Shown piece by piece: positions 3,870 through 58,595 of a stretch of 64,000 nt of DNA. A program made the position numbers and the translations under genes. This DNA is from a virus (taxonomy: Duplodnaviria; Caudoviricetes): IMG/VR virus record IMGVR_UViG_2772190736_000001, positions 1-64,000 of that record. One strand, written 5' to 3'. The notes under the pieces are model-generated. The model made no database searches. It had not been told where the DNA came from and saw only the letters and a list, made by a program, of their open reading frames with translations. Every line of letters begins with the position of its first letter. Positions within the stretch are counted from its first letter, which is position 1.

Positions 3870-4403
3870 TCAGAACGGCGGCTCCTCGCTGTACCCCCCA
3901 CCCTGCGGACCCGACGCACCAGTCGCCCACGGGTCATCAGCGGGAGCACCGCCACCACCCTGCCGGCCACCGCCACCACCCTGCCGGCCACCGCCACCAG
4001 CCTGCTGACCACCGCCGTACCCACCCTGACCACCACCACCGGTGGACTTGGTGACCTTGACCGTGGCGCTCTTGAGGCTGGGGCCGACTTCCTCCACGTC
4101 CAGCTCGTACACCGTCCGCTTCACACCCTCACGGTCCTCGTACGACCGCTGCTTCAGCCGACCCTGCACGATGACCCGCATCCCCCGCTGCAGGGACTCC
4201 GCCACGTTCTCCGCGGCCTGCCGCCACACCGAACAGGTGAGGAACAGGCCCTCCCCGTCCTTCCACTCGTTGGTCTGCTTGTCGAACACCCGCGGGGTCG
4301 ACGCGATACGGAACTTCGCCACCGCCGCGCCGGCCGGGGTGAACCGGAGCTCCGGATCGTCCACGAGGTTCCCGACAACCGTGATGACCGTCTCGCCTGC
4401 CAT
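3870..4403 (-). CDS. ssb: Single-stranded DNA-binding protein
   Basis: [23 protein letters not shown]; Gly-rich tail ending EEPPF; actinobacterial SSB. Confidence 0.97.
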
Positions 4404-4427
4404 GCTGATACTCCTTCGTCTCGGCCC

Positions 4428-4994
4428 TCAAGCCGCGTTGCTGATCTGTCCCACGGGCTGCACCGGCACATACCGGCCCTCCGCCCGCGCCTTGTCCTTC
4501 GCCCGCTCCCACGACCGCTTCACCGCGGCAACTGACAGACCAAGCCGTTCCGCCACCTGCTCGTACGACAAGCCCCGCCGGATTCCCCGGTCCACGCCCA
4601 GGCGCCGCTCATCGCGGTTGAGGTGGATGCCGGACGCGCCGTTCGGGTGGGACAGGGCACGCTCCACCGCCACCTCGTCCACTCCAGCGCCCCTCGGCAC
4701 CGAGCCCTCGGCCAGATCCCGAAGCGTCCGCCGGCTGGCTTGCACAGCCTGGATGGGCGCCCCGTACTCGTCGAAGTCCAGCCAGCCCAGCAGCGCGCCG
4801 AGGCTCCGGTCCGGGTCGACAAGGCCGGCCAGGACGACAAGGAGCGCGGTCTGCTGCTGCTGGTCCAGCGCCCCGAGGAGCTCCTCAACGTCCTGGACGC
4901 CACCGTCACCCTGCACGATCGTCGTCAGGCGGGCGGCGACCGGCAGCATGTCCTCCGCGAGGTCCCCGCGGTCCTGGGTGGTGAGCCGCTTCAT
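4428..4994 (-). CDS. HTH DNA-binding protein (sigma region 4-like C-terminus)
   Basis: GLSYEQVAERLGLSVAAVKRSW. Confidence 0.7.
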   Translation of the reverse strand: MKRLTTQDRGDLAEDMLPVAARLTTIVQGDGGVQDVEELLGALDQQQQTALLVVLAGLVDPDRSLGALLGWLDFDEYGAPIQAVQASRRTLRDLAEGSVPRGAGVDEVAVERALSHPNGASGIHLNRDERRLGVDRGIRRGLSYEQVAERLGLSVAAVKRSWERAKDKARAEGRYVPVQPVGQISNAA

Positions 4995-40473: not shown

Positions 40474-41262
40474 TCAGCCGCCGGGCGTGGTCGTGGTGAC
40501 CTCGACCGCCGGGGTGGTGCCGCCGGTCAGGGAGGAGGTGGCGGTCATCTCGGCGACGTTCTGGCCGTCGTACTGGCCGCCGAACGTGACCGTGACGGCC
40601 GTGCCCGGGAGCGCTCCGCCCGCGCAGACAACGTCGCCGGGGTTGATGTTCGACAGGCCCTCGAGCGCGGTCTGCACCGCGGCGGCCGCTGCGTCGTAGG
40701 AGATGGCGGCGGTGGTCTGGCCGGTGAAGGTCAGGGTGAACGTGCCGCCGGTCGGCGTGCCGGTGATGGTGATCGTCTGGACCTCGTCGGTCCCGGCCGC
40801 GGGGACGGCGGAGTCGAGCACCGGGGTGTCGGTGATCGAGAACCGGGCGGTCCACTTCGCGGCCTCGTTGTCCACCGTGATCTGCGACGACTTCGAGGCG
40901 ACACGGACCGGGTAGATGTCCATGGACTGGGAGGTCGGCACGTCGCCCTTGCGGAGGATGACGATGAAGCCGGTGGTGCCCTTGGCGAGGGCCAGCTCGA
41001 GGGTGTTGCTGGTGTCGTCCTCGTAGAACGTCAGCGAGGAGTCGGCGGCCTGGTCGTCGCCCGGGATCTTCGAGGTGAACGTGCTCTCGAGGTCCGGGGT
41101 CTCGATCTCCTGGTTCTCCAGGGCGAAGCCCTCGACCTCGGCGATCTGCTTGGTCAGCTTCGTCGCGCTGGTCAGCTCGGCGCGGGTCGGAACGTAGTTG
41201 GTGTCGGCGATCGTCTCGAGAAACAGGATCTTCGTGACGCCCTTGCGGGAGAAACGCGGCAT
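40474..41262 (-). CDS. Major tail protein with extra C-terminal domain
   Basis: PTRAEL, TPDL...F...IPG, LTFY; synteny. Confidence 0.85.
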   Translation of the reverse strand: MPRFSRKGVTKILFLETIADTNYVPTRAELTSATKLTKQIAEVEGFALENQEIETPDLESTFTSKIPGDDQAADSSLTFYEDDTSNTLELALAKGTTGFIVILRKGDVPTSQSMDIYPVRVASKSSQITVDNEAAKWTARFSITDTPVLDSAVPAAGTDEVQTITITGTPTGGTFTLTFTGQTTAAISYDAAAAAVQTALEGLSNINPGDVVCAGGALPGTAVTVTFGGQYDGQNVAEMTATSSLTGGTTPAVEVTTTTPGG

Positions 41263-41360
41263 GGTGGGGACCCCTTGGTGCGTACGGCTGTGGGCGGCCA
41301 CCCGATGTGGTGGCGTCCGCGTGGGGTCCCGCCGCGGTGCGGTGTGGGCCTGACCAGAGG

Positions 41361-41810
41361 TCAGGCGGGAGTCAGGTCGAACCTGAACCGCTGCACATTG
41401 CTGATGATGGCATCCGGTGGGGCAGATGATCCCCCCGGTTCGATGTCCAGGCTCCGGCCCATCACCTTCACGCCGTCGATCGTCAGGGCGTGCATCCACT
41501 GGCCCGTCGCGGGGTCGCGGGCGAGGAACGCACGACGGGCCTTGTCCGCCATCCACTCCGTCTGATCCGCCGATCCGTACGAGCCGGGCGTGCTGGTGGT
41601 GGGCCCGGAGACGGCGGTGACCTGATAAACGACGCTGAGGTCCTCGCTCTCGTCGGCGAGCGGGGCGCCGGACACGGTGGTGGAGATCGAGTCGAGCAGG
41701 TAGTACGGCGGTTCGGCGTCGAGCGGCCGGGCACCGCGGCCGACCTTCATGCCGGACACGGTGGCGAGCAGGTCGGCGACTGCGTTGGAGACGGGGAGTC
41801 GGTCGATCAC
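41361..41810 (-). CDS. Tail terminator-like protein
   Basis: P...PPYYLL, YQVT; position. Confidence 0.7.
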   Translation of the reverse strand: MIDRLPVSNAVADLLATVSGMKVGRGARPLDAEPPYYLLDSISTTVSGAPLADESEDLSVVYQVTAVSGPTTSTPGSYGSADQTEWMADKARRAFLARDPATGQWMHALTIDGVKVMGRSLDIEPGGSSAPPDAIISNVQRFRFDLTPA

Positions 41811-43545: not shown

Positions 43546-45374
43546 CAGAAGGGTCCTCCGAAGGCGTAGTCGGGGCGGGAGATGATGTCGGGCCGGGGCC
43601 GGAACTCTCTGCGGCAGTTCGGGTGCGCGACGGGGTGGGCGAGCGCGTCCTGGACGGTGCGCAGGGTGCCGGCGGCCCGGTCGTCATCGTCGTGCGAGGT
43701 CCAGCCGCAATTCGCTACGATGATTCCATCAACGGTGAAGGTGCCACCGCTTGTTGTCGCGTCGTAGACCCATCCCTCGTAATGCTCTACGTCGACTGAC
43801 ACCACCTGCGAAAGGGTGAACCTGTGGGGAAGCTGGACAGTCGCAAGGACAGCGTCGTCGTCAGCTGTGAGACCTGTGGCACGTCGTTCCAGCCGCTCTA
43901 CAACAGCGCGGCCCGGTTCTGCGGGCAGGCATGCTCGAGGTCCGGCAGTATCCGGCTCCCCCGTGAGGAGATACGCCGCCTCTACGTCGAAGACGGACGC
44001 CAGCCGGGCGAGATCGCTGATGTCCTCGGCCTTCGCGTGTCCCAGGTCTATACAGCCGTCAAGCGCATGGGTATCTCCCGAAGCCGCTCTGAAGCTCTGT
44101 CGCTGTGGCATGCGAACGCCGGGGCCGGCGCCAGGGAAGAACGTGCCAAGGCAGCCCACGACGCCAAGCGCGGACGCCCCTCCAAGCCCGAGAGCTTCGT
44201 CAGAAGCGCTATCACCAAGCAGTCCATCGCTTCGATCATCGGACCGCATGAGGTCAGATTTGCCGAGATGCTGCGAGCCAGAGGCGTCGGATACTCCCAG
44301 CAAACTCCGCTGGACGTCTACAACATCGACTTCACCCTGACCGAATACCCCGTCGCCGTGGAGATCGTCACCGGTGGCGGTTCGAACGGATACTGGCAGC
44401 GCCTTCACAAGCGACGCATACACGTCCTCCACCATTGGCACCTGTTTGAGATCAAGTTCCGCAAGGGCCGCCGAGTCCTCACAGAGCCCGTCGTGGACAA
44501 GCTGATCGCCTTCGCGGAGAAGGTGAGCGCGGACCCAACCCCGTACGGTCAGTACGGGATGGTTTGGCCCAACGGTGAAGACATCCGTACCAACGCTCGT
44601 ACGCCGCGCTATGCGGTAGGCCGGCCCTGAGAACCAGGCTCTGACCATCTGCTTCAGGTGTCCATGCGGAAGGAACGCGCCTCCAGGCATCACGCACTCG
44701 GGCCCGTCGCGGACTTCGACCCAGTCGGCGCCGACTTCGTCCGCGCAGGTGCGGAGGAAGCCGGTGTTCGCGGTGGTGTAGGTCTGCCAGGAGGTGGCCG
44801 CGCGGGCCCAGGATTCGACGGGGTGGCGGGAGGAGCCGGCGTAGATGACGGTGTCGAGCGGGTGGTCCTGGAGGAGGCGGGCGCGTCCGGGCCATGGCTG
44901 GCGGATGCGGTCGACGTGGCCGCGGGCGGCGGTCAGGGCGTCGCGGAGGAACGCGCGGGCTCGGCGTACGGCTTCACGGATCCGGCCGGTGAGGTCGGCG
45001 TAGTACTGCGCGGACAGGGTGGTGATGTGGGCCTGGTGTCGTGCGGTCCAGGACCATCGGGAGGGGCGGCCGGCGCGGTCCAGGGCGGCGAGGGCACCTT
45101 CCCGGTAGGCGATGGGCAGGTCGGTGGCGGCCCAGCGCTCGACGAGCGCGAGGGCGGCGCGGTCGAAGGCGGCGATCTGCTGCTGGAACGCCTCGCCTGC
45201 GGTACGGATCGCGGCGTAGGCGGTGCGGCCGGGCCGGATGCGGGCGAGGGCGGTGAGGAGCGTGTTCTGGGCGCGGGTGAGGATCCGCCAGGCGGCCGCG
45301 AGGGCGTCGGTGGCACCGATGATGAGGGCCAGGAGCCGGGCCCGTAGGGAGCGGCGGCGTACGGGGGTGGTCAT
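43545..45374 (-). CDS. Minor head protein (MuF/SPP1 gp7-like), intein-containing; about 280 aa after splicing
   Basis: VEVRDGPE|CGW...HPNCRR motif restored when the 329-aa insert is removed; located in head module. Confidence 0.8.
   Translation of the reverse strand: MTTPVRRRSLRARLLALIIGATDALAAAWRILTRAQNTLLTALARIRPGRTAYAAIRTAGEAFQQQIAAFDRAALALVERWAATDLPIAYREGALAALDRAGRPSRWSWTARHQAHITTLSAQYYADLTGRIREAVRRARAFLRDALTAARGHVDRIRQPWPGRARLLQDHPLDTVIYAGSSRHPVESWARAATSWQTYTTANTGFLRTCADEVGADWVEVRDGPECVMPGGAFLPHGHLKQMVRAWFSGPAYRIARRTSVGTDVFTVGPNHPVLTVRGWVRAHLLREGDQLVHDGLCEDSAALAELDLKQVPMVEDVYASLVKALPVSVRTATGDDLHGDGVFGQGEVDVVDVQRSLLGVSDASGSQHLGKSDLMRSDDRSDGLLGDSASDEALGLGGASALGVVGCLGTFFPGAGPGVRMPQRQSFRAASGDTHALDGCIDLGHAKAEDISDLARLASVFDVEAAYLLTGEPDTAGPRACLPAEPGRAVVERLERRATGLTADDDAVLATVQLPHRFTLSQVVSVDVEHYEGWVYDATTSGGTFTVDGIIVANCGWTSHDDDDRAAGTLRTVQDALAHPVAHPNCRREFRPRPDIISRPDYAFGGPF
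43710..44696 (-). mobile_element. Intein (329 aa)
   Basis: Cys1 (CVMPG), block B TVGPNHPVLT.RGW, block F YEGWVYDATT, block G IIVAN followed by Cys+1. Confidence 0.85.
43824..44630 (+). CDS. Putative homing endonuclease (Zn finger + HTH + Vsr/DUF559-like nuclease) encoded antisense within the intein
   Basis: CETCG..F......RFCGQAC; EIRRLY..G....EIA..LG; E..F...L...G....Q......IDF......AVEI; GC3 bias on + strand; AAAGGG before GTG. Confidence 0.75.
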   Translation: MGKLDSRKDSVVVSCETCGTSFQPLYNSAARFCGQACSRSGSIRLPREEIRRLYVEDGRQPGEIADVLGLRVSQVYTAVKRMGISRSRSEALSLWHANAGAGAREERAKAAHDAKRGRPSKPESFVRSAITKQSIASIIGPHEVRFAEMLRARGVGYSQQTPLDVYNIDFTLTEYPVAVEIVTGGGSNGYWQRLHKRRIHVLHHWHLFEIKFRKGRRVLTEPVVDKLIAFAEKVSADPTPYGQYGMVWPNGEDIRTNARTPRYAVGRP

Positions 45375-47248: not shown

Positions 47249-47983
47249 TCAGACCTTGTAGATGAACTGGGTGTTGGAGCCGGCCGGGACGTCGGTCGGG
47301 TCGAAGGCGACGGGGAGCTTGGCGACGTCGATCTGGCCGTGGACCATGAGCGGCGCGGCGGCCTTGGTGGAGCCGGGGTAGAAGGACACCTCGGTGAAGA
47401 GGAACCCGGCGAAGATCTGGGAGCCGTCGGTGGCGGTCGCGGTGTCGCCGCCGGTCGTGGTGGCGATCGTGATGTCCGGGGTGGTGCCGCCGGTGAACGT
47501 CTCGGTGGTGGTGGGCGCGGCGACGTTCTCGCCGAGCTGGGTGCCGCCCCAGGTCAGGGTCCAGGGGCCGCCGGCGTTGCCGGTGACGACGACGTCGCCG
47601 GGAGCGATGTTGGACAGGGCCTCGAGCGCGGCCTGGACCTGCGCGGCGGTGGCGTTGTAGGCGAGGGCGGTTGTGGTCTGTCCGGACCAGGTGATCGTGA
47701 AGGTGCCGCCGGTGGGGGCGCCGGTCACGGTGAGGGTCTGGATCTCGTTGGTGACGGCCGCGTACGGCGCGTACAGCCCCGAGGCAGACAGCTTGCCGAG
47801 GGGGATGCCGGACTTCAGCTTCCGCTCGGGCTGGTGGGCCGAGGCCTCGGTCCAGTGCAGGGTCTCGGAGAACTTCGACAGGTCGAGGGTGATGGTCTGG
47901 TTCGCTTCGATGCCGAGCATGCTCATCAGCCACGGGCGGCCGACGGCGAGCGTCTCGGTGGTGGTGTACGGCTGGATGTCCAC
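47249..47983 (-). CDS. Head decoration protein with inserted domain
   Basis: TITLD.S.F, LKSGIPLG, GLY.PY, AGFL, HG.I...KLP. Confidence 0.8.
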   Translation of the reverse strand: MDIQPYTTTETLAVGRPWLMSMLGIEANQTITLDLSKFSETLHWTEASAHQPERKLKSGIPLGKLSASGLYAPYAAVTNEIQTLTVTGAPTGGTFTITWSGQTTTALAYNATAAQVQAALEALSNIAPGDVVVTGNAGGPWTLTWGGTQLGENVAAPTTTETFTGGTTPDITIATTTGGDTATATDGSQIFAGFLFTEVSFYPGSTKAAAPLMVHGQIDVAKLPVAFDPTDVPAGSNTQFIYKV

Positions 47984-48088
47984 GCCGTGACCCCTTTCGC
48001 GTGAGCGCGTGATGGGTGCGGGCACCGGGTGTGGTGCCGTCCACGGGGGTCAGGGCGTGGTCCCTCGGGTGGTGCTGGTCTTGTGGGG

Positions 48089-49040: not shown

Positions 49041-49958
49041 ATGAGACGCGGATGGAAAGAGCTGGCCGAACCCATCGAGCAGCTGTGCCGGGTTTTCGAG
49101 ACCAGCGCGTCCGTGCATGAGGGATTCTCCTCAACGTCCCGTGCCGCTGATGAGGCGCGAGACCGAACGCTCGATGGCCCCTGGGGCGCTCGTGTCACAC
49201 GAGACGCAAACGTCACTGCTCAGGCCATTGCGGTGCTGATGATGGACAACCTGGGCTCGCTCGTCGACATCATCAACAGCCCGCGTGGGGTCTACTCGGG
49301 ATTCACCATGACGCGCGCTGTGGTCGACTCTGCGACTGGGGCCTGGTACCTCATGGATCCGGAAATTGACGTCCGCGAACGAGTTCGTCGGTTCATGAAC
49401 TTTCGCCTTGTCAGCTCTCACGAGCGCGGGCGGCTGCTCCCTGAGGAATGGGACGATCGCCGAGCCCGGATGATTCGCGAGGAGTCGCGCGAGGAGACCG
49501 AGAGGATCCTTCAGGGCGCCCGGCTGCACGGCTACCAGGTGACGGCAGCGAGCGGCATGAGGGCCCCGTTTCTAGGGGACCGCCTGCCAAGCACGACTGC
49601 GTTGGCCAGCCAAGTCGTTCCCCGGGACAACCCTCTTGGACGAACGTCCTGGAAGCTCACCTCTGCAGTCACTCACGGGACTCTGTATGCCATCTCCATG
49701 GCTTTCGAGACGGTCGGCGTAAGCGAGGACCCTACTCACGGCGATGTAGCCGTACGTCCTCGCCTCAGCCCTCGTAACGCTGCGGCACAGTTCTCCGCAG
49801 CGCCCTTGGCAGCGATCTCGACTCTGGTACGGCTGTACCGCCAGTTCGGTTGGGACATGCAGGAGCTGGTCCAAGCATCTGCCGCAGTGGAGGCGATGCT
49901 GTGGGAGTTCATGCGCGTTCTGTCTCCTCGGGAGACTCCAGCGACGTTTCGTCCGTGA
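49041..49958 (+). CDS. Accessory (moron-like) helical protein, possible HEPN-like defence gene
   Basis: Opposite strand, lower GC; R..VD..A..WY..DP and WK..S..THG motifs. Confidence 0.6.
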   Translation: MRRGWKELAEPIEQLCRVFETSASVHEGFSSTSRAADEARDRTLDGPWGARVTRDANVTAQAIAVLMMDNLGSLVDIINSPRGVYSGFTMTRAVVDSATGAWYLMDPEIDVRERVRRFMNFRLVSSHERGRLLPEEWDDRRARMIREESREETERILQGARLHGYQVTAASGMRAPFLGDRLPSTTALASQVVPRDNPLGRTSWKLTSAVTHGTLYAISMAFETVGVSEDPTHGDVAVRPRLSPRNAAAQFSAAPLAAISTLVRLYRQFGWDMQELVQASAAVEAMLWEFMRVLSPRETPATFRP

Positions 49959-51777
49959 CCGGGAGCTGGACGACAGGCGGGGCGGGGTCGGGGTTGATGT
50001 CGATGCCGAGGTAGGTGGCGACCGCGTCGGTGGAGCCAGTGGCGTCGGCGAGGTAGCGGGCCTGTTCGAAGCGGCGGGCCTGGATCTGGGCGATCTCGGT
50101 CTCGGCGTCGTCCATCGGCCAGCCTGCTTCGGCGAGGATCCTTACGGCGGTCTCGAGGGACATGACGCCGGCGGTGACGGCCTCGGAGACCTGGGTGAGG
50201 ACGGCGGCCTTGTCGGTGGGGGTGTACGGGCCGAAGGAGAGCAGGGCCCGCTGGGTCTGGACGCCGGTCCAGTCGGGGTGCGCTCCGGCGAGGGACATGC
50301 GTTGGACGAACTTGAGGAGCAGGGCGTACTTGTGGGCGCGGGCGAGGCGCATGGAGCCGACGAGGGAGTCAAGCGGGCCGAGGGAGATCTCCAGGGCGTA
50401 GCCGGAGGGGACTTCGGAGGGGTTGACGGTGCCGAGGGTTACGGCGGGCAGGCGGGCGATCGTGGCGGCCCGTTCGGACAGGTCGGTGCGCTGGTTGCGG
50501 AGCTCGGCGAGCTGGGGGGAGGTGTCGACGGCGTCGAGGCGGCCGCCTTCGGGGAGCTCGAGGACGGTGCCGGGGGCGACGGCGAGTTCGCTGCGGCCGT
50601 TGGATCGTCCGCCGGAGAGCGCGATGATCGGGGAGCCGGTGGTGGCGGAGGCCTTTGCGGAGTCGGTGTCGGTGCCGGCCAGCTCGTCGAAGACCTGCAG
50701 CACCTTCGCCAGGCTGGATGTGCCCCAGTGCTCTTCGGCGTCGGGGACGGTGTTGGGGACGTGGATCACTGGGATGAAGTCGAGGTAGAGGTCGAGGTGG
50801 TCGAGGACTTCGCCGGTCGGGCCGGTGGCGTACTGGGCCTTGTCCATGGGGAGGTTGTCGACGTCGTGGGGGGCTTTGAGGTCGCCGAGGTCCCAGGTGG
50901 CGTCGGTGAGGTAGCAGGTGACGTACGACGGGGTGTCGTTCCACAGGTACTGGCGGGCGATGAACCCGGACTCGGTGGGGATGTCGCCGCGGCCGAGGAC
51001 CGGTTGGGCGGGGGCGTCGCCGTCGGTGTCGGTCATGACGGGGGCGCGGACGGGCCGGCCGGTGCGGTCGACGCCGGAGGCGGTGACGGGCCGGATCCAG
51101 TCGAGTTCGTAGGTGATGCGGCGCAGCCGCGCGGGCAGGCCGCGCTTCTTGTCTGCGGGAAGGTCCCAGGCGAGGTGGACGCGTTCGGGGTAGTCGGAGG
51201 CGTCGCCGTCTTCGGCGAGGACCGGGTAGTAGAAGCCGGGGTCGAACGCCTTGAGGCGCACCCTGCCCTTGTTGGGGTCCCAGGCCAGGAGGTAGACGCC
51301 GTCGCCGAGGGTCACGGCCTTGCGTTCGGTCTGGATCATCCGCATGGACAGGAGCTCGTCCTCGGCCCAGTCGCGCAGGAGGGTTTGGACGCGTTCGGCC
51401 ATCGCCTGGTCGGTGTCGGGGGTGTCGGTGTCGGTCTGTTCGGCGCTGGGGACGACGATGGTCTGCTCGCGGCCGAGGACGTTGGCGAGGATGGTCTCGA
51501 TGAACATGGACGGGTCGCCGAACTCGCGGCGGTCGCTGGCGGTGGGGTCGCGTAGCTGGGCGAGTTCGGCGGCCTGGTTGTTGGCGTAGGCGGCGAGGAG
51601 CTTGTAGGCGGCCAGGCGTCGCTCGTCGCCGGCCGGGACCCAGGAAGCGGCGGCTTCGGGGAAGGCGCGGCGGTGGGGCATGCCGAGGGTGTCGGAGTAG
51701 ATGGGCTTGTAGTTTGCCCATCCCCAGGCGTCGATGACGACGTCCTTGATGCCACTGAGCAGGCCCACGGGGCGCAC
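49909..51777 (-). CDS. Portal protein
   Basis: LGDG.Y...WD, DP..YYP, IPVIHVPN, WG.S, SG.AL, MSLETAV; first gene of head module. Confidence 0.82.
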   Translation of the reverse strand: MRPVGLLSGIKDVVIDAWGWANYKPIYSDTLGMPHRRAFPEAAASWVPAGDERRLAAYKLLAAYANNQAAELAQLRDPTASDRREFGDPSMFIETILANVLGREQTIVVPSAEQTDTDTPDTDQAMAERVQTLLRDWAEDELLSMRMIQTERKAVTLGDGVYLLAWDPNKGRVRLKAFDPGFYYPVLAEDGDASDYPERVHLAWDLPADKKRGLPARLRRITYELDWIRPVTASGVDRTGRPVRAPVMTDTDGDAPAQPVLGRGDIPTESGFIARQYLWNDTPSYVTCYLTDATWDLGDLKAPHDVDNLPMDKAQYATGPTGEVLDHLDLYLDFIPVIHVPNTVPDAEEHWGTSSLAKVLQVFDELAGTDTDSAKASATTGSPIIALSGGRSNGRSELAVAPGTVLELPEGGRLDAVDTSPQLAELRNQRTDLSERAATIARLPAVTLGTVNPSEVPSGYALEISLGPLDSLVGSMRLARAHKYALLLKFVQRMSLAGAHPDWTGVQTQRALLSFGPYTPTDKAAVLTQVSEAVTAGVMSLETAVRILAEAGWPMDDAETEIAQIQARRFEQARYLADATGSTDAVATYLGIDINPDPAPPVVQLPVTDETSLESPEETERA

Positions 51778-51818
51778 CTTTCCGGTGTCGGGCCCCGCGC
51801 CTTGTGATCAGCGTACGG

Positions 51819-52715
51819 CTACACGCCGCTGGCACTCCCCCGGGCTCGCTCCAGAGCCTTGCGGTACTTGCGGAGCCGGTTGTTCTGGTACCAGTCGAAG
51901 CGCCGGATGGTGAAGGAGTCTCTCCACCCGGCGATCCTGCTGTGTACGAGCTGCATGCGCGGATCGAGGAGCCGGGTCTGGTCCTGATCGGGTCCGAAGG
52001 AGTTACCGAAGAGCGATGCGTCTCCGGCCTCGCGGAAGAACGCGGTGCCCACGAGGACAGTGTTGATGCGGGCAACCGACCGGAATGCCTTGTGCTCGGC
52101 ATCGGTCATCCCCTTCTCCACGTTGATCGGGGGCATGGGTTCGTAGCCGATGTCGTTGACGCCGACGTACCAGGTCCGGTAGCCGCCCGGGTTGCCGAAG
52201 TAGAAGGACTCGATGTAGGTGAAGCGACGGGCCCCAATCCAGGGCCAAAAGTCGTCTGGCTCCGGCATCGCACCAATGCGGGTTTTACCGAGTTTCACCA
52301 GGGTGTTTCCGACGAGAAGTCGGGGGCGGAACCACCGGCTGGTGGTGGTGATGCCGTAGATCTCAACAGTGCTCTCGGTCGACCAGGTGACCAGATAGCC
52401 GAACCGACCGAGCTTCCACGTCCGCTTGGTGAGTTCTACCTCCAGGTCCTTGTCGGGCACCGGGTTCTCGGGCTGGTACCGGTGGACCGTGCACGGGGAG
52501 ACCCACGTCGGCTCGCCAAAGAGCTCCTGCATGTAGTCCGGGCTGACCCAGGGGGCGACCTTCCGGACCCGAGATATGACGTGGCGGCGTCGTCCGAGGG
52601 TGCTGCGCCAACCGGCCGCCGCCGTCTTCATCAGGGTGAGGGTGGCAACGATGGTGGCGGCAAGGGTCCACACGTTCAAGGTGGTGCTGTACCAAGGCTG
52701 ATCAGCTACGGGCAT
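51819..52715 (-). CDS. Accessory membrane-anchored hypothetical protein
   Basis: N-terminal hydrophobic segment; LFGEP, GARRF.Y.E..YFGNPG.Y; atypical codon usage. Confidence 0.65.
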   Translation of the reverse strand: MPVADQPWYSTTLNVWTLAATIVATLTLMKTAAAGWRSTLGRRRHVISRVRKVAPWVSPDYMQELFGEPTWVSPCTVHRYQPENPVPDKDLEVELTKRTWKLGRFGYLVTWSTESTVEIYGITTTSRWFRPRLLVGNTLVKLGKTRIGAMPEPDDFWPWIGARRFTYIESFYFGNPGGYRTWYVGVNDIGYEPMPPINVEKGMTDAEHKAFRSVARINTVLVGTAFFREAGDASLFGNSFGPDQDQTRLLDPRMQLVHSRIAGWRDSFTIRRFDWYQNNRLRKYRKALERARGSASGV

Positions 52716-52970
52716 GGCGGAAGCATGCAACACAGCGCGGCTGCGCGGTACGGCATTTGACAGGGCTCATCGGCTCTACGCTCCCGAAGCTGCCACGAAG
52801 TGACAAGTAGCTCTCTGTAATCGCGCTTGACCTGCGGTGATGCTGTGGTACCTGGTGCCGACTTCACGGCGAAGGCAACACGCTGACATCGGATCAGCGC
52901 GTTGACCTGCAAGGTTCTCGAAGCTCCGGATTCGTGAACTCACCGCATGGCCCGGTACTCCCGAAGGTGT

Positions 52971-53001
52971 CGCCCGCCCCGTGTGTTGCCCGGGGCGGGC
53001 G
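52971..53001 (-). terminator. Hairpin after type III PKS
   Basis: CGCCCGCCCCG...CGGGGCGGGCG. Confidence 0.6.
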
Positions 53002-53019
53002 CGGCTGCTCGGTGGACCT

Positions 53020-54159
53020 TCAGGTGGTGTGCCAGGTGCCGCGGAGGGCGGCGGTGGTGAATCCGGGGCCGTAGGCGACGACCACGCCGGCGGCGCCATC
53101 CTCGGGCGGGTCGGCGTAGGTGCGCTCGAGGACGCGGAGGATCGATACGCCGCCGAGGTTGCCTTCTTCGGTGAGGGTGGCGGTGGAGTGGCGGGTGTCG
53201 ACGTCGTCGAGGCCGAGGGCGCGTGCGGTGTCGGTGATGATGCGGGGGCTGCCGGGATGGATCGCGGCCCAGTCGACGCTCTGGTCGGGGCCGATCCAGT
53301 CGAGGACGGTGGGCAGGACGTCGTCGGCGGCGGTGAGGGCTTCCTTCGTGGAGTCGAAGTGGAAGCCGTCGGTTCCGATGCGGCCGCTGTAGCGGTCGAC
53401 GCTGCCGGGCAGGACGTATTCGAGGGTGTCGTCGGGGCCGGCGATGTGGAGGCCGGGGCCGAGGGGCTGGTCGGAGACGATGCAGGCGGCGGCGGAGTCG
53501 CCGAACAGAGCCTTGTAGATCATCGCCTCGATCGAGGTGTCGTTGTGGTTGTAGACGCTCGAGATGATCTCGGCGGCGATGACGAGGACCTTGGAGCCGG
53601 GTCGGGCGGCGATGAGGTCGACGGCGCGGGTGAGGGCCTGGGTGCCGCCGGCGCAGGCCATGGTGGTCAGGGCGATCCGGCGGACGGTCGGTCTGAGGCC
53701 GAGGGCGGCTATGAGGTGGATGTCGAGGTTGGGGACGGACCAGCCGGTGGAGTGGGTGGTGATGATCGCGTCGATGTCCGGATAGCTGCCGGGGTCGGGT
53801 CCGGGCGTGAGGCCGGCGGCGGCAAGGGCCTGCTGGGCGGCGTTGGTGGCCAGGGCCAGGGCGTCGGTGAAGGCGGCGGTGGAGCGTTCCTCGATGGTGG
53901 CGTCGCCGGACACGGTGGCGGCGGTGAGCGGCCGGCTGAAGTAGCGGGTCTGCACGCCGAGGTTCCCGATGACGCGGGGTATGACGCGCAGCTGCGGGTG
54001 GTCGGGGTGGCGGCCGGCGATGTCGTCGATGATTTCGCTGGTCGTCACCTTGTGGGTGGGCAGGGTTGTGATGGGGCGGGAGATGTAGGGCACGTGGTCC
54101 TCCGGCACGGTGGCGGTCGTCGTGGGGGTGCGGAGTGGGGGTGCGGTCAACGTACACAC
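53020..54159 (-). CDS. Type III polyketide synthase (chalcone synthase/RppA/PhlD superfamily); start may be 54108 or 54093
   Basis: Catalytic Cys (MACAGG), His (IHPGS), Asn (GNLGG); ALFGD.AAA; AYGPGFT. Confidence 0.92.
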   Translation of the reverse strand: MCTLTAPPLRTPTTTATVPEDHVPYISRPITTLPTHKVTTSEIIDDIAGRHPDHPQLRVIPRVIGNLGVQTRYFSRPLTAATVSGDATIEERSTAAFTDALALATNAAQQALAAAGLTPGPDPGSYPDIDAIITTHSTGWSVPNLDIHLIAALGLRPTVRRIALTTMACAGGTQALTRAVDLIAARPGSKVLVIAAEIISSVYNHNDTSIEAMIYKALFGDSAAACIVSDQPLGPGLHIAGPDDTLEYVLPGSVDRYSGRIGTDGFHFDSTKEALTAADDVLPTVLDWIGPDQSVDWAAIHPGSPRIITDTARALGLDDVDTRHSTATLTEEGNLGGVSILRVLERTYADPPEDGAAGVVVAYGPGFTTAALRGTWHTT

Positions 54160-54192
54160 ATGCGGCGGAGTTGGTCCCCCCTGACCTGCGGC

Positions 54193-55029
54193 TCAGGTGG
54201 TCCGGCGGGCGCGGAGCATGGGCAGTCTGGTGTGCTGCTTCTTCTGCCCGGGGTGGTAGATGAGGACGATCAGACGAGCTCCTGGGGCGCCGAGGGGCAT
54301 GGCTGCGCACATGGTGACGTGCCCGGGGCCTTGGAGGGCGTGGTGTATGGGGCGTTCGTCGCCGTCGGGGTGGATGTGGGCGCCGCCGGATTCCCAGAGG
54401 GGTGCGAGATCGGGGTCGGCGCGGGCGTCTTCCGCGATTTTGAGGAGGGTTTCGTCTTCGGGGCGGAGGGCGAGCGCGGCGCGGAGCTGGGGCAGGACGA
54501 GGGGGGCCCAGACTGCTTTCCAGTCGGTGAGCATGGTGCGGCCGCGGGGGTCGAGGAGCATCCAGCGCATCGTGTTGGCGGGGACGTGGCTGTCGGGGAA
54601 GAGGTCGGCGAAGGCGGCGTTGTGGGCTATGAGGTTCCAGGAGGCGTCGTTGACGTAGGCGGGGTGGGCGATGCCGTCGACGGCTTCCTGCCAGACGCCG
54701 GGGATCTCGAGGCCGGAGGACGGGTTGAGGGGGTAGGGCGGGTCACCGATGCCGGCGTACCTGCACAGGCAGCCCCACTCCTGCTCGTTGAGGCCGAAGA
54801 GGCGGCCGACCTGCTCGAGGTAGTCGACCGGGGGGTTGGGGTAGCGGCCCGATTCGAGGCGGTAGTACGTGTTGGCGGCGCGGCCGGTGAGTTCGTCGAC
54901 CTGCTGCTGAGAGAGGCCGGCGGCGCGGCGGCCTTGACGGCTGGGCCGGGTGAGGCCGTGGTCTTCCGGTTCGATGAGATCGCGGCGCTCGGAGAGGAGC
55001 GCCTTGAGGGCCTTGCGGTTCATCTTCAT
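54193..55029 (-). CDS. XRE-family regulator with MmyB-like ligand-binding domain
   Basis: L..RR..I.P...GL......GRR..GLSQ..V...Y.RLESGR; PAYV.D..WNL.AHN; N..RW. Confidence 0.88.
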   Translation of the reverse strand: MKMNRKALKALLSERRDLIEPEDHGLTRPSRQGRRAAGLSQQQVDELTGRAANTYYRLESGRYPNPPVDYLEQVGRLFGLNEQEWGCLCRYAGIGDPPYPLNPSSGLEIPGVWQEAVDGIAHPAYVNDASWNLIAHNAAFADLFPDSHVPANTMRWMLLDPRGRTMLTDWKAVWAPLVLPQLRAALALRPEDETLLKIAEDARADPDLAPLWESGGAHIHPDGDERPIHHALQGPGHVTMCAAMPLGAPGARLIVLIYHPGQKKQHTRLPMLRARRTT

Positions 55030-55528
55030 CGTTGCCTTTCCCCCGTGTACCGTGCACGCGTGCCCTGGGAGTGTATTTATTGGTGCGCCGTTTCGTAATA
55101 AAAACTGCGCGTGGATTTCTGTCGGTTGAACGGTGAAGCTGTGCCCTGTGGGCGCGCTGACCTGCCGGGAAGCGGGGTAGGGCGGCCACACTGCAACACC
55201 CCAGGACGGTCCTGCGAGCGGCGGATACGCAATCCGTCAAATCGCCTTGTGGGAAAGTCCTGTTGCCCTCGTCGGGCTCCGGCAGGGGCGTTGCCGGACG
55301 GTGCTGTATTCCGTGCTTCGGTGCGGATTTCGCAGCTCGGCACCGTTCCGGTTCGCCTTGCCGGGGCTTTGAGGGCCCCTAGAGCTACGGTCGGCGTCGA
55401 CAATCGCCCCGATGCCGCGTCCTCGGTGCCGACCGTGAAGTACGGGTCAGGTGGCGCTTCCCCCGGCGCCCTCTGGCCAGCCGAGAAGGCCCCGGACGGT
55501 CACTCCACCCCCGTTCGGGGCCTTCGGT

Positions 55529-55861
55529 CTACCCGCCTTCGGATTCCGTGTCGTCGTCGACGAGCGCGTGCTCGGCGTGCGGGTAGCCGCAGGCGCCGGC
55601 GCCGAAGTAGCGGGCCTGGCACGGTCCGGGGCCTTCGTAGGTGTGGTGGGTGATCAGCCGGTGCTGGCCCTCCTCCTTCCGGACCGCGGCCATCACGTCC
55701 TTGGCGAGCGTCTCCGCCCATCCCCCGGGGACCATGGGCTGACCGGCTGGCCAGGTCAGCTTCTGCACCTGCTCGAGGACGGCCCTGTACCGAGGGTCCT
55801 TGCGGGCGTCGGCTCGGGCTCCGGGGTTGAAGTCGGTGAGGGCGGGTTCTGCGTCGGCCAC
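55529..55861 (-). CDS. Hypothetical protein
   Basis: AGGAGG RBS; C-terminal C...CG....H. Confidence 0.55.
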   Translation of the reverse strand: MADAEPALTDFNPGARADARKDPRYRAVLEQVQKLTWPAGQPMVPGGWAETLAKDVMAAVRKEEGQHRLITHHTYEGPGPCQARYFGAGACGYPHAEHALVDDDTESEGG

Positions 55862-55995
55862 AGGGCCTCCTGGTCGTAGGGCGGGCAGGTCCAGTCGAGG
55901 GCGATGGCGATCTGGCCATCGAGCGGGGCCGGCGTCGGGGCGGTGAGCTGCTGCTCCAGGGCGCCGAGGCGGGCGCGGGTCTCAGGCGTCGTCAC
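55756..55995 (-). CDS. Small hypothetical protein
   Basis: PLDGQ motif of small actinophage ORFs; overlaps next gene. Confidence 0.35.
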   Translation of the reverse strand: MTTPETRARLGALEQQLTAPTPAPLDGQIAIALDWTCPPYDQEALWPTQNPPSPTSTPEPEPTPARTLGTGPSSSRCRS

Positions 55996-56004
55996 CTGCT
56001 GTCC

Positions 56005-56697
56005 TCAGATCAGGGCGAGGGCGGACCGCTGAACGGTTTCCCCATGGGAGGCGATCAGGCGGAGCTTCGGGAACGACTTGACCGGCTCCTGCCCGGGAAC
56101 AGCGGGCCACTCGTCGGCGGACAGTCCGTACCCCGGCGGTCCCCAGCCTGAGTCGAACAGGATGTGCTTCGCGGCCTTCCGGTACTTCGGCTCCCAGTCC
56201 CAGGTGAAGAACAGCGGCAGGAGACCGCCGCGGTTCGGAATGGGTTCCGGTGCCACGGTGCAGCTGTGCCTGGCGCGCTTGTAGATCGGCGTGGCGTACT
56301 CGCGGCAGCGTTGGCGGTTGCAGAAGCCCCAGTGTCGAGACCAGCCGGTGACCGGGTCCCGTTCGCTGAAGCCGTGGACGGTGTTGCGTCCGCAGAGCCG
56401 GTCGACGCGGACCATGGGGGCCTGGCATCCGTTCGGGGTCTGGTCGTGGAGCTTGGAGTCGTAGCGGGGGACGTCGTCGGCGAGGTGGCGCCACATCTGC
56501 TCGTTGGTGGCGTTGAGGACTTCGCGGGTGCGGGTCCAGGTGGTGATCGTGGGGTCGTGGCGGCGGAGGTCCCGGAGACCGACCCAGCCGAGGGCGAGGA
56601 TGAGGTCGCGGGTGCCGGTGGGCATGCGGCGCTCGGTGTAGACGCGAGCGAGGAGCTGGTCGTAGCGGGCGAGCGCGTTCTTGTCGTCGATGCTCAC
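56005..56697 (-). CDS. Hypothetical Cys-containing protein
   Basis: GAGGAGG RBS; codon bias. Confidence 0.65.
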   Translation of the reverse strand: MSIDDKNALARYDQLLARVYTERRMPTGTRDLILALGWVGLRDLRRHDPTITTWTRTREVLNATNEQMWRHLADDVPRYDSKLHDQTPNGCQAPMVRVDRLCGRNTVHGFSERDPVTGWSRHWGFCNRQRCREYATPIYKRARHSCTVAPEPIPNRGGLLPLFFTWDWEPKYRKAAKHILFDSGWGPPGYGLSADEWPAVPGQEPVKSFPKLRLIASHGETVQRSALALI

Positions 56698-56698
56698 C

Positions 56699-57007
56699 TC
56701 AGTCCTCCTCTCCGGTCTTCTTCTGCCGGTGCAGGGGCCAGGCGGAGGCTCCGCGGAGGCGGTCGGCGTCGATGTCGATGACGCCGAGTTCCAGGAGGTG
56801 GAGAAGGGCTTCGTGGACGGCGCCGTCGATGGCGGTCATGAGAGGCATGGGGTTCTTCAGCGGGCCGTCGGGGCTGTTGCAGGCCCAGGCCATCGCGGCG
56901 GAGCCGGCGACCCGGTTGATGATGGCGAAGTCGCTGCCTTTGCCGGTGTCGACCGGGATGCGGCCCCAGTCGTTGAGGCCGGTGGGAGTCGGGGGCTTGG
57001 TCGTCAT
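56699..57007 (-). CDS. Hypothetical protein
   Basis: GAGGA RBS. Confidence 0.6.
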   Translation of the reverse strand: MTTKPPTPTGLNDWGRIPVDTGKGSDFAIINRVAGSAAMAWACNSPDGPLKNPMPLMTAIDGAVHEALLHLLELGVIDIDADRLRGASAWPLHRQKKTGEED

Positions 57008-57009
57008 GG

Positions 57010-57717
57010 TCAGTCCTCTCCGTCGACAGTGCGGGCGGCAGCGGCTTCGGTTTCGCCGTTCGGGCCGACCTGGGCGAGTGCGGTGCGGTGCTTCCGGATG
57101 ATGCGGACGATCTCGGACGACCAGCCGTGCTTGGTGGCGGTGTCGTCGAGGGCGGCGGGACAGTCGCCGTCGTGGTCGTGGTGCTGTTCGCAGTCCCAGC
57201 CGATGAGGAGGGCGTACAGGCGGGCGTCGGTGGGGTCCTGGGCCCAGTCCCGTTTGCCGTGCTTGATGTGGAGGCGGAGGGACAGCAGGGCGTTGCGGAC
57301 GCCCGCCGTGAGGGTGGCGCCAGCGTTGAGAAGGGCGTTCTGGTCCTGCCAGGCCTGGTAGAAGGAGCGACCGACCTCACGGCACTCGGCGTACTGGTCC
57401 TCGGCGTCCCAGAGCCTGTCGTACAGCTCGGCCAGGGTGGCGTCGGTGTGCTCGGCGAGCGGGACGCGAGGGTCCGGCTCGGCGGGCGGGGGCGGTTCCA
57501 TGTCGGGAAGGGTGCTCGCCGTCTTCAGCTGGCTGTACTTGGCGTGCCACCGCTTGGCGCGGTGCTTGTACGTATCGCGGTCGGCGATGGCACTCTCTCG
57601 GTCGACCTGCAGCTGGTGAAGGGCTTCCGGGGTGATGGTGTCCATCGTGTACCGGGACTCTTCGGGGCCGAGGAGCTGCGCTTCATCTGTGCCTGAGGCT
57701 GGGGAAGGACTGGTCAC
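57010..57717 (-). CDS. Hypothetical protein
   Basis: GTG coupled to upstream stop; RDW.....DA.LY....GW. Confidence 0.6.
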   Translation of the reverse strand: MTSPSPASGTDEAQLLGPEESRYTMDTITPEALHQLQVDRESAIADRDTYKHRAKRWHAKYSQLKTASTLPDMEPPPPAEPDPRVPLAEHTDATLAELYDRLWDAEDQYAECREVGRSFYQAWQDQNALLNAGATLTAGVRNALLSLRLHIKHGKRDWAQDPTDARLYALLIGWDCEQHHDHDGDCPAALDDTATKHGWSSEIVRIIRKHRTALAQVGPNGETEAAAARTVDGED

Positions 57718-58061
57718 TGTCCCCCGCTTTCGTTGACGTTCTTTCGGTAGGCGATGAGCGCTGATGCGAGGGCGGACTGGTGGATGTCGGAGAACATGAC
57801 CGCTGCGTGCTCGCCAAAGGCGTTCCGGGCGTCCTGGAGGGTGACCATGTAGGCGCCCCATGCCTTCTCGAAGGAGTCGTTCTCGCGTTCGTCCTGGATG
57901 GCGGCGCGGTGCTCGGGGGTGAGCAGGGCGCGACACCCGGCGCAGGGGACGCCCTTTTCGTGGCCGGGCGTGCGGCAGGGACGGGTTCCATCGGGCTGGA
58001 GGTCGTGGTCTTCGACGGGGTGGGAGCATGCCCAGCAGTGGGTGGGGGCTTGGTCGGTCAC
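57714..58061 (-). CDS. Hypothetical zinc-binding protein
   Basis: CWAC.H...H...C...C..C. Confidence 0.55.
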   Translation of the reverse strand: MTDQAPTHCWACSHPVEDHDLQPDGTRPCRTPGHEKGVPCAGCRALLTPEHRAAIQDERENDSFEKAWGAYMVTLQDARNAFGEHAAVMFSDIHQSALASALIAYRKNVNESGGQ

Positions 58062-58595
58062 GGCATCGGCTCCTCGGGGCTTGGGGTGATACGGCGGATG
58101 CGGAGGGGCGGTCCCAGCGGCGGAGGCGGGTCGTTGCGGTGCTTCCACGCCTTGAGGGTGCGTACGGGGTGGACAGCGAGAAGGGCGGCGATCTCAACGG
58201 CCAACACGGGTTGCGCGGCCCACCAGCGCCAGTCCCGGCGGGTGATGCGTCGTCCGTACGTCAGCCAGTGGGCCCAGTCGGAGGCGCGGTGGCCGAGGCG
58301 GACCCGGCCGAGGGCGTAGCCGACGGCCAGAGAAGTCAGGATGATGGCCGTCGTCGCTGGAGTAGGCGGGGAGGTGATGCTGGCAGGTCTTGCAGGCGCG
58401 GACGGCGGGGTTCTTCCAGCAGCGTCCGATGTGCGCGATGGCGGCGGTCTTCTTGCTGCGGGACTGCCGGCAGTGGGGGCACTGGTACCGGGTGACCTGG
58501 ATGACGAGGGGGTCCTCGGCGGGGATGGGCGGTGTGACCGGCGCCGGGTCGGGGTTGGGGGTGTTCCAGGGCAGGAGGTCGAGGTCGGTCGTCAT
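58058..58595 (-). pseudogene. Probable deletion fusion of a zinc-finger gene and a headless membrane-protein gene
   Basis: YQCPHC..H..C..NP...CKTC ORF loses coherence near 58360, where another frame (TAIILTSLAVGYALGR...) without a start codon runs to 58058. Confidence 0.45.

Follow-up and report, generated by a model that had tools for sequence, protein, structure and literature searches.

The closest described relative of the locus analysed here is the violapyrone cluster of Streptomyces somaliensis SCSIO ZH66. The locus itself is a pair of genes, encoding a polyketide synthase (PKS) of type III and a regulator, on the minus strand of the viral record IMGVR_UViG_2772190736_000001, of which positions 1 to 64,000 were analysed (the window). 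In S. somaliensis the gene vioA, encoding a type III PKS of 350 amino acids, adjoins vioB, encoding an XRE-family protein of 272 amino acids; both are carried by a circular plasmid of roughly 85 kb. The two form the complete cluster for the violapyrones, which are 3-methyl-4-hydroxy-6-alkyl-alpha-pyrones. Deletion of vioA abolishes violapyrone B and deletion of vioB raises it about 8-fold, while the flanking open reading frames (ORFs) have no effect. When wblA is deleted, vioB transcripts go down and vioA transcripts go up. The proteins pCQ3.110c (WP_012840496.1) and pCQ4.19c (WP_015060958.1) share 95% identity with VioA and VioB, respectively. Cpz6, which is 53% identical to VioA, makes violapyrone B, the same compound as presulficidin A. 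Violapyrones weakly inhibit methicillin-resistant Staphylococcus aureus (MRSA), with a best minimum inhibitory concentration (MIC) of 25 ug/mL (all from PMC4924298).

Loci of the vioAB type are also known from other genomes. A second paper lists 21 further genomes with such loci, "most" of them plasmid-borne (PMC5898002). In the same paper the VioA mutants I174A and Y229A were crippled, S242A was inactive and L190I was neutral. VioA grouped with Cpz6, DpyA and Gcs, apart from the malonyl-only subclade, and violapyrones were active against influenza in cell assays. A PKS has been noted on the plasmid pSLE1, where its neighbours were said not to indicate a cluster (PMC4487206). In the available text of a paper on prophages, type III PKSs are reported only from plasmid prophages, and no clusters for known antiphage molecules are reported from prophages (PMC10023795).

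Judged by its sequence, the pair in the window is a new copy of the published vioA/vioB cluster type and not a previously unseen unit. The explanation that we consider probable is a self-contained two-gene cassette of the vioAB type, in which a violapyrone synthase is repressed by a VioB-like regulator, carried on a phage-plasmid as accessory cargo that serves the lysogen.

Comparison of the pair with vioAB

The synthase gene is intact and belongs to the type III PKS family. Its longest ORF runs from GTG 54159 (53020-54159, minus strand, 379 amino acids), while the true start is likely GTG 54093, which has GGAGG 5 nucleotides (nt) 5' of the start codon. The protein of 357 amino acids that results has the length of the database copy of the window's own PKS (P0001). 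Both Pfam domains exceed their cut-offs (Chal_sti_synt_N, 2.3e-20; Chal_sti_synt_C, 1.2e-6), and the catalytic triad C169/H301/N334, numbered in the 379-residue frame, is invariant in 48 of 48 homologues, the window's PKS included. The comparison with VioA and VioB was made via the two 95%-identical proxies named above; the window PKS is 65% identical to pCQ3.110c (229/352) and the regulator is 61% identical to pCQ4.19c (169/276). The equivalents of VioA S242 and L190 are invariant in the same 48 homologues and Y229 is retained in the window PKS, whereas the position of I174 is occupied by valine, a conservative change. An identity of 65% lies within the range in which the product class is kept, because Cpz6 makes the same compound as VioA at 53%. 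A violapyrone-type product is the best prediction for the window PKS at this level of identity.

The regulator belongs to the MmyB-like family. It starts at ATG 55029 behind the Shine-Dalgarno sequence GGGGGAAAGG, is co-oriented with the PKS gene and lies directly upstream of it, with 99 nt between its stop codon and the PKS start. Pfam places an HTH_31 domain (6.6e-10) before an MLTR_LBD domain (5.2e-21, 75.9 bits against a cut-off of 26.3). An N-terminal XRE helix-turn-helix (HTH) followed by a C-terminal PAS-like domain is the arrangement of MmyB-like proteins such as 3pxp. An AlphaFold2 model built with 26 homologues has a mean predicted local distance difference test (pLDDT) score of 82.5, and its top fold match in the PDB by Foldseek is 3pxp (Caur_2278), an HTH-plus-PAS protein, over the full length (E 9.4e-11, 280 columns). 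A sequence search with the regulator against the PDB gave no match, and the sequence identity to 3pxp is 18-19%. The global template modelling (TM) score to 3pxp is 0.43, probably low because of domain orientation. MmyB itself is described as an activator. VioB, in contrast, acts negatively (PMC4924298), and by analogy with it we infer that the regulator acts negatively on the PKS gene here.

The resemblance to vioAB extends from the proteins to the layout of the locus. In both cases there are two genes only, the regulator gene is directly upstream on the PKS strand, and the carrier is a circular plasmid of about 85-90 kb. The papers on vioAB speak of a plasmid, whereas the carrier here encodes tailed-phage virion genes. 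In the available text of PMC4924298 the words "phage" and "MmyB" each occur 0 times; VioB is termed XRE there and an MmyB-like ligand domain is unmentioned. The plasmid pZL12 (GQ919031) carries the same pair as pZL12.99 and pZL12.100, which are 64.5% and 66.2% identical to the window regulator and PKS, and both genes of the pair in pSLE1 (LN831788) are 59% identical to those of the window. Like the element studied here, pZL12 and pSLE1 have phage structural genes and are circles of about 90 kb; they differ in the flanks of the cassette, and the two genes are known there as annotations. The plasmids pCQ3 and pCQ4, which supplied the proxies, both encode a homologue of the capsid protein and are therefore phage-plasmids by gene content. 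Cpz6 differs in setting, as it sits in the large caprazamycin cluster and its pyrone carries a sulfonate; such partner genes were not seen around the window pair. No tailoring or transport gene was seen near the pair, where the neighbours have no Pfam or PADLOC match and the PHROGs scan covered the ORFs 51819-52733 and 56005-56697.

An earlier note on this DNA had described an intact Cys-His-Asn type III PKS directly downstream of a co-oriented XRE/MmyB-like regulator, with no tailoring enzyme or transporter, and this description is borne out. It had also proposed a module of synthase and receptor. The module is a real, conserved unit, but it is neither unknown nor phage-specific, as shown by the published vioAB cluster and by chromosomal copies.

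The carrier element

The element is a phage-plasmid of the pZL12/pCQ3 type, with virion, packaging and partition genes on one putative circle. The first 64 kb of a contig of 90,633 bases make up the window, and the first 85 bases of the contig are repeated at its end. From this overlap in the assembly a circle of about 90.5 kb is deduced. The virion genes encode portal, scaffold, head decoration, major capsid, major tail, tape-measure and minor tail proteins; TerL and ParA are encoded elsewhere on the contig, which also carries genes for Ku, a C5 methylase and a 401-residue XRE regulator. The GC content of the element is 69.6%, against 71.9% for the genome. The closest deposited phage is Streptomyces phage/plasmid ZL12, whose DNA matches 13% of window positions 40000-64000 at 74.7% identity. 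The capsid protein is common to 34 Streptomycetaceae plasmids, with 43-92% identity; 33 of these are 85-94 kb long and one is 152 kb.

Pairing and distribution of the two genes

The synthase and the regulator occur as a pair at most loci, and the pair is common in one group of phage-plasmids. Both genes are found in 26 of the 34 capsid-related plasmids and neither is found in the other 8, so that no plasmid has one alone. The 8 negative plasmids were verified by searches of the whole records, in which two positive controls gave both genes. Of 400 other Streptomyces genomes that were sampled evenly, 30 (7.5%) match the PKS at E <= 1e-80, in 34 places; the identities there are 44-80% by tblastn, and 47-80% in the table of the genome search itself. 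The enrichment on related elements that the earlier note had offered as a check was thus found (26/34 against 30/400), and the pair is conserved in relatives such as pZL12 (66% for the PKS and 64.5% for the regulator), so that the refuting condition set in the earlier note, lack of conservation in related elements, does not hold.

The same order of genes recurs in each collection searched. Among the PLSDB matches listed, 35 of 40 PKS records have a co-oriented regulator no more than 1.3 kb upstream, and in 31 of these it is within 600 bp. Four of the remaining five are absent from the 60 regulator matches listed, and in the fifth the regulator lies on the opposite strand at a distance of 3.7 kb. 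In species-representative genomes every locus that has a PKS homologue (43 of 43) carries the regulator immediately upstream in the same orientation, at distances of 81-583 bp. L053 (at a contig end) and L057 (frameshifted) are partial, and a 44th locus, L059, is a fragment of 41 residues only. At the 34 places in the sample of 400 genomes, the regulator is upstream in 30, with gaps of 76-212 bp. Across 47 loci the pairwise identities of the two proteins co-vary (Mantel r 0.62, a value reached by 0 of 999 permutations). L057 and L059 were dropped from trees and alignments, as was L053 for the regulator; the regulators of L009 and L044 are represented by the longest piece free of stops in their tblastn-derived translations.

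The cassette is also found outside phage-plasmids. In 16 of the 43 loci the 10-kb flanks hold homologues of other genes of this contig. The flanks of the other 27 do not; 23 of these loci are on contigs longer than 100 kb, including two complete chromosomes, and the PKS and regulator genes are all that the 27 have in common. A Pfam scan of ten flanking genes from five of the 27 showed ordinary genes of the TetR, SDR, acyltransferase-3, helicase, Ser/Thr kinase and oxidoreductase families. Similarly, 22 of the 34 places in the 400-genome sample are on contigs longer than 100 kb, five of them complete chromosomes, and 3 are on contigs of 90-100 kb. The position of the cassette varies among the phage-plasmids as well. 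Here, as in the closest relatives, it adjoins the portal gene; in the Kitasatospora plasmid CP108485 it is beside the terminase, and in pSLE1 and other plasmids it is surrounded by hypothetical, Ku and DUF6233 genes. In the PKS tree the phage-plasmid sequences are paraphyletic, with chromosomal clades nested within them. Five switches between phage-plasmid and other contexts are needed, at least three of them forced by well-supported branches, against a mean of 15 after shuffling. The tree was made by a quick method with an outgroup on a very long branch; its root is uncertain, and therefore no donor or direction of transfer is named.

Several loci depart from the usual form. The most divergent cassette (42%/40% identity) is that of CP108485 (L010, 5087-7160), in which the regulator and PKS genes almost abut, a perfect 20-bp hairpin (-42 kcal/mol) follows the PKS, and the pair and the terminase operon are divergently oriented. 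In pCQ4 (L061, NC_019307) two small hypothetical genes at 4165-4820 lie between regulator and PKS, in a gap of 963 bp, and CP108821, CP108098 and CP108397 have similar gaps of 1.1-1.2 kb. One chromosomal sub-clade of five loci has TetR, SDR and acyltransferase-3 genes 3' of the PKS on the same strand (L048, 11120-13958; L050, 11103-13823), and these may have a tailoring role in making a modified pyrone. On the plasmids CP108296 (L065, 5001-5837) and CP109039 (L066, 4001-4837) a solo regulator is followed by an ORF of 76 amino acids, near ParA/ParB and primase genes. These regulators may have been orphaned by loss of the PKS, or they may have another target.

Control regions and flanking genes

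Each gene of the cassette appears to have its own promoter. The hairpin and both promoter-like blocks were read directly from the sequence, and together with a palindrome the two conserved blocks suggest promoters for both genes and a candidate operator (Table 1). The gap between regulator and PKS has the layout CAGGGG, 17-20 nt, TA(C/G)GTT, G..CGCACCCCCCAC, GGAGG and start codon. This layout is found in most of 46 homologous gaps, in phage-plasmid and chromosomal copies alike. The block upstream of the regulator gene is likewise conserved between phage-plasmid and chromosomal loci. Several phage-plasmid loci have related imperfect palindromes centred on CACGTG-like cores. The 47-nt stretch of the PKS promoter and its strict motif occur once in the contig, where the second-best match to the stretch is 28/47; this test, made with the stretch and the strict motif, does not support a phage late promoter shared by the PKS. 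The palindrome GGCACGCGTGCAC, when as many as 2 mismatches are allowed, has 3 matches in the window against 7.35 expected; it is below the expected count and therefore indicates no regulon.

Table 1. Positions of the cassette genes and of the predicted control elements in the window
Feature	Position	Strand	Basis and remarks
GC-rich hairpin, terminator-like	52971..53001	-	11-bp stem; no U-tract; about 18 nt past the PKS stop
vioA-like type III PKS	53020..54093	-	357 amino acids; Pfam domains and identity to pCQ3.110c
PKS ribosome-binding site GGAGG	54099..54103	-	conserved in most homologous gaps
Putative vioA promoter, in the regulator-PKS gap	54137..54183	-	layout recurs in homologous gaps; predicted function
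Parts of the putative vioA promoter: CAGGGGGG; -10-like TACGTT; CGCACCCCC	54183-54176; 54154-54149; 54145-54137	-	
vioB-like regulator, XRE-type HTH and MmyB-like (PAS-like) ligand-binding domain	54193..55029	-	278 amino acids; Pfam and identity to pCQ4.19c
Palindrome GCACGCGTGC	55054..55063	-	between -10 and Shine-Dalgarno of the regulator gene; candidate operator or stem in the 5' untranslated region
Putative vioB promoter	55070..55098	-	TTACGA 55098-55093, 17 nt, TACACT 55075-55070; AT-rich patch; predicted function
Upstream non-coding region	55099..55528	-	no Rfam family

The cassette is bounded by a hairpin on one side and a long non-coding region on the other. Both had been pointed out in the earlier note and both were found again. 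The hairpin has a minimum free energy z-score of -3.4, and 1 of 200 shuffled sequences folds as well. A scan of 51700-56100 for consensus promoters and terminators gave 0 sites of either kind; the terminator scan missed the hairpin because it has no U-tract. Of 47 loci, 28 have a hairpin of -22 kcal/mol or lower after the PKS stop, compared with 48 of 188 random windows, while at a cut-off of -18 kcal/mol the excess is small (33/47 against 111/188). On the other side, positions 55030-55528 (about 500 nt) contain no gene, according to a call based on GC content at third codon positions (GC3). The proximal 100 nt or so of the upstream region (about 55099-55180) are conserved with phage-plasmid and chromosomal cassettes and include GCAGGTCAGCG, CAGC(A/T)TG, GTTCAAC and ATCTACG (loci L001-L058). 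A word similar to a motif of this region, CAGGTCAG, opens the PKS promoter block. Rfam gave no match at E <= 0.1 within 52600-55700. A search of sequencing runs for 51800-56000 found no RNA run and two DNA runs with 0.07-0.09 of the words.

The genes around the cassette belong to the phage-plasmid. Downstream of the PKS is the portal gene (49909-51777), with one ORF of 304 amino acids between them, and beyond it are the genes for capsid, scaffold, decoration, major tail and tape-measure proteins. Upstream, the genes at 55529-58148 have no Pfam match, and the one scanned with PHROGs (56005-56697) has none there either, while these genes do have homologues in related phage-plasmids. The 304-residue ORF (51819-52733, minus strand) includes a stretch of hydrophobic residues at the N terminus and matches nothing in Pfam, PHROGs or PADLOC. 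Among 44 related loci it has a homologue in L017 only (67%), and its place looks like a variable cargo slot. Two other features of the virion region were noted. The major tail (40474-41556) and head decoration (47249-48025, minus strand) proteins match the same PHROG families (phrog_10909, 2839 and 5042) over about 100 residues, which suggests that head and tail share an Ig-like display domain. An ORF of 268 amino acids at 43824-44630 on the plus strand lies amid the minus-strand head genes and has no Pfam match.

Interpretation and alternative explanations

The evidence is best explained by a violapyrone cassette that serves the lysogen. In this explanation the VioA-like PKS would condense beta-ketoacyl starters derived from fatty acids with methylmalonyl-CoA, giving 3-methyl-4-hydroxy-6-alkyl-alpha-pyrones (violapyrones/presulficidins). 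The VioB-like regulator would repress the synthase gene, and a lipophilic ligand in its PAS-like domain presumably relieves the repression. Each gene would be driven by its own promoter within the cassette. The cassette itself would be a moron-like insert by the portal gene of a circular phage-plasmid of about 90.5 kb of the pZL12/pCQ3 type. It most likely benefits the lysogen by way of an antibacterial or physiological metabolite, and a role in phage decision-making is unlikely. An extension of this scheme is an autoinducing circuit, in which the regulator senses violapyrones or their acyl precursors. We regard such a circuit as improbable. Phage-plasmids of this family would keep it because the pyrones, being germicidin-like, would alter spore germination or early hyphal growth in the host and in its neighbours. 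Streptomyces phages infect at this stage, and the circuit would thereby influence which cells are open to infection, favouring the lysogen.

Some observations weigh against the violapyrone cassette. The product and the negative regulation are those of the S. somaliensis homologue and not of this strain (PMC4924298). The identities of 65% and 61% are moderate, and they were measured to the proxies rather than to VioA and VioB themselves. VioA I174 is replaced by valine in the window PKS and in 39 of the 48 homologues; the alanine mutant of this residue is severely impaired, and therefore the chain-length preference may differ. At 2 of the 34 places in the genus sample the PKS has no regulator within 4 kb, so the coupling of the genes is strong and not absolute. 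Solo VioB-like regulators (61-63% identical) without a PKS are present on 6 of the 60 plasmids listed; two of the six were inspected (CP108296 and CP109039), and both are linear. Finally, homologues are named "PhlD" in RefSeq, which we take to be a generic name, and the nearest relative of the PKS with a solved structure is the tetrahydroxynaphthalene (THN) synthase 1u0m (E 6e-45).

These last two points would fit a synthase with a different product, an RppA- or PhlD-like enzyme that uses malonyl-CoA only and makes THN, flaviolin or phloroglucinol, and the annotation of pZL12 and pSLE1, "similar to RppA", agrees with them. Such a product is nevertheless very improbable. No NCBIfam equivalog is reached by the window PKS, the top one being DpgA with 87 bits against a cut-off of 425, and the only other type III PKS in the genome is just 30% identical to it. 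The 65% identity to the VioA proxy and the retention of S242, Y229 and L190 point to the violapyrone enzymes instead. In S. somaliensis the vioA knock-out abolishes violapyrone B (PMC4924298), and VioA clusters with Cpz6, DpyA and Gcs, outside the malonyl-only subclade (PMC5898002).

The remaining alternatives accept the pyrone and differ in what it does for the phage. The earlier note had likened the pair to arbitrium, and in that case lysogens would make a diffusible pyrone, the MmyB-like regulator would detect it, and the phage-plasmid would adjust lysis-lysogeny, copy number or superinfection behaviour accordingly. The composition of the unit, a synthase and a ligand-binding regulator with nothing else, would suit such communication, as would the frequency of the cassette on capsid-related phage-plasmids relative to other genomes. 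In Photorhabdus, alpha-pyrones serve as signals, and spore germination is influenced by germicidins. An arbitrium-like system would be specific to phages and wired to lysis-lysogeny. The same cassette with the same promoters is present on chromosome-sized contigs between TetR, SDR, kinase and helicase genes, 8 related phage-plasmids lack it, and its place differs from element to element (portal, terminase, or Ku/DUF6233 genes). The promoter stretch is unrepeated in the contig and the palindrome shows no excess in the window, so no second target of the regulator is visible and a link to lysis-lysogeny has no evidence in the element. The printed VioB phenotype is simple repression of vioA (PMC4924298). 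A communication circuit of this kind is accordingly most unlikely. Chemical defence or attack, in which pyrones shield the lysogen from other phages or kill competing bacteria, is also unlikely, though less so, and it overlaps with the lysogen benefit of the violapyrone cassette. It would agree with the inhibition of MRSA (PMC4924298), the anti-influenza activity in cell assays (PMC5898002) and the frequency of the cassette on phage-plasmids. On the other hand, the published antibacterial potency is low, PADLOC found 0 defence families in the five proteins scanned (the pair and its neighbours), literature searches gave no anti-phage data for pyrones, and the available text of PMC10023795 reports no clusters for known antiphage molecules in prophages. 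The anti-phage trait suggested in the earlier note is left, like the arbitrium analogy, as speculation.

Significance

Biosynthetic genes are rare on phages. For the window alone the result is a routine annotation, a cassette of the vioAB type. Its parts have been published separately: the vio cluster on a plasmid in 2016 (PMC4924298), the type III PKSs of plasmid prophages in 2023 (PMC10023795), and the annotations of pZL12 and pSLE1. In the literature searched, where most matches were judged by title, no statement was found that links these parts, that describes the violapyrone cluster as phage-plasmid cargo or that identifies VioB as MmyB-like. With the violapyrone cassette as the probable explanation, one family of temperate phage-plasmids would commonly carry a chemically characterised mini-cluster, which is present in 26 of the 34 capsid-related plasmids. 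The family may therefore offer a tractable system for the value of a secondary metabolite to a phage-plasmid and for the ligand of an MmyB-like sensor.

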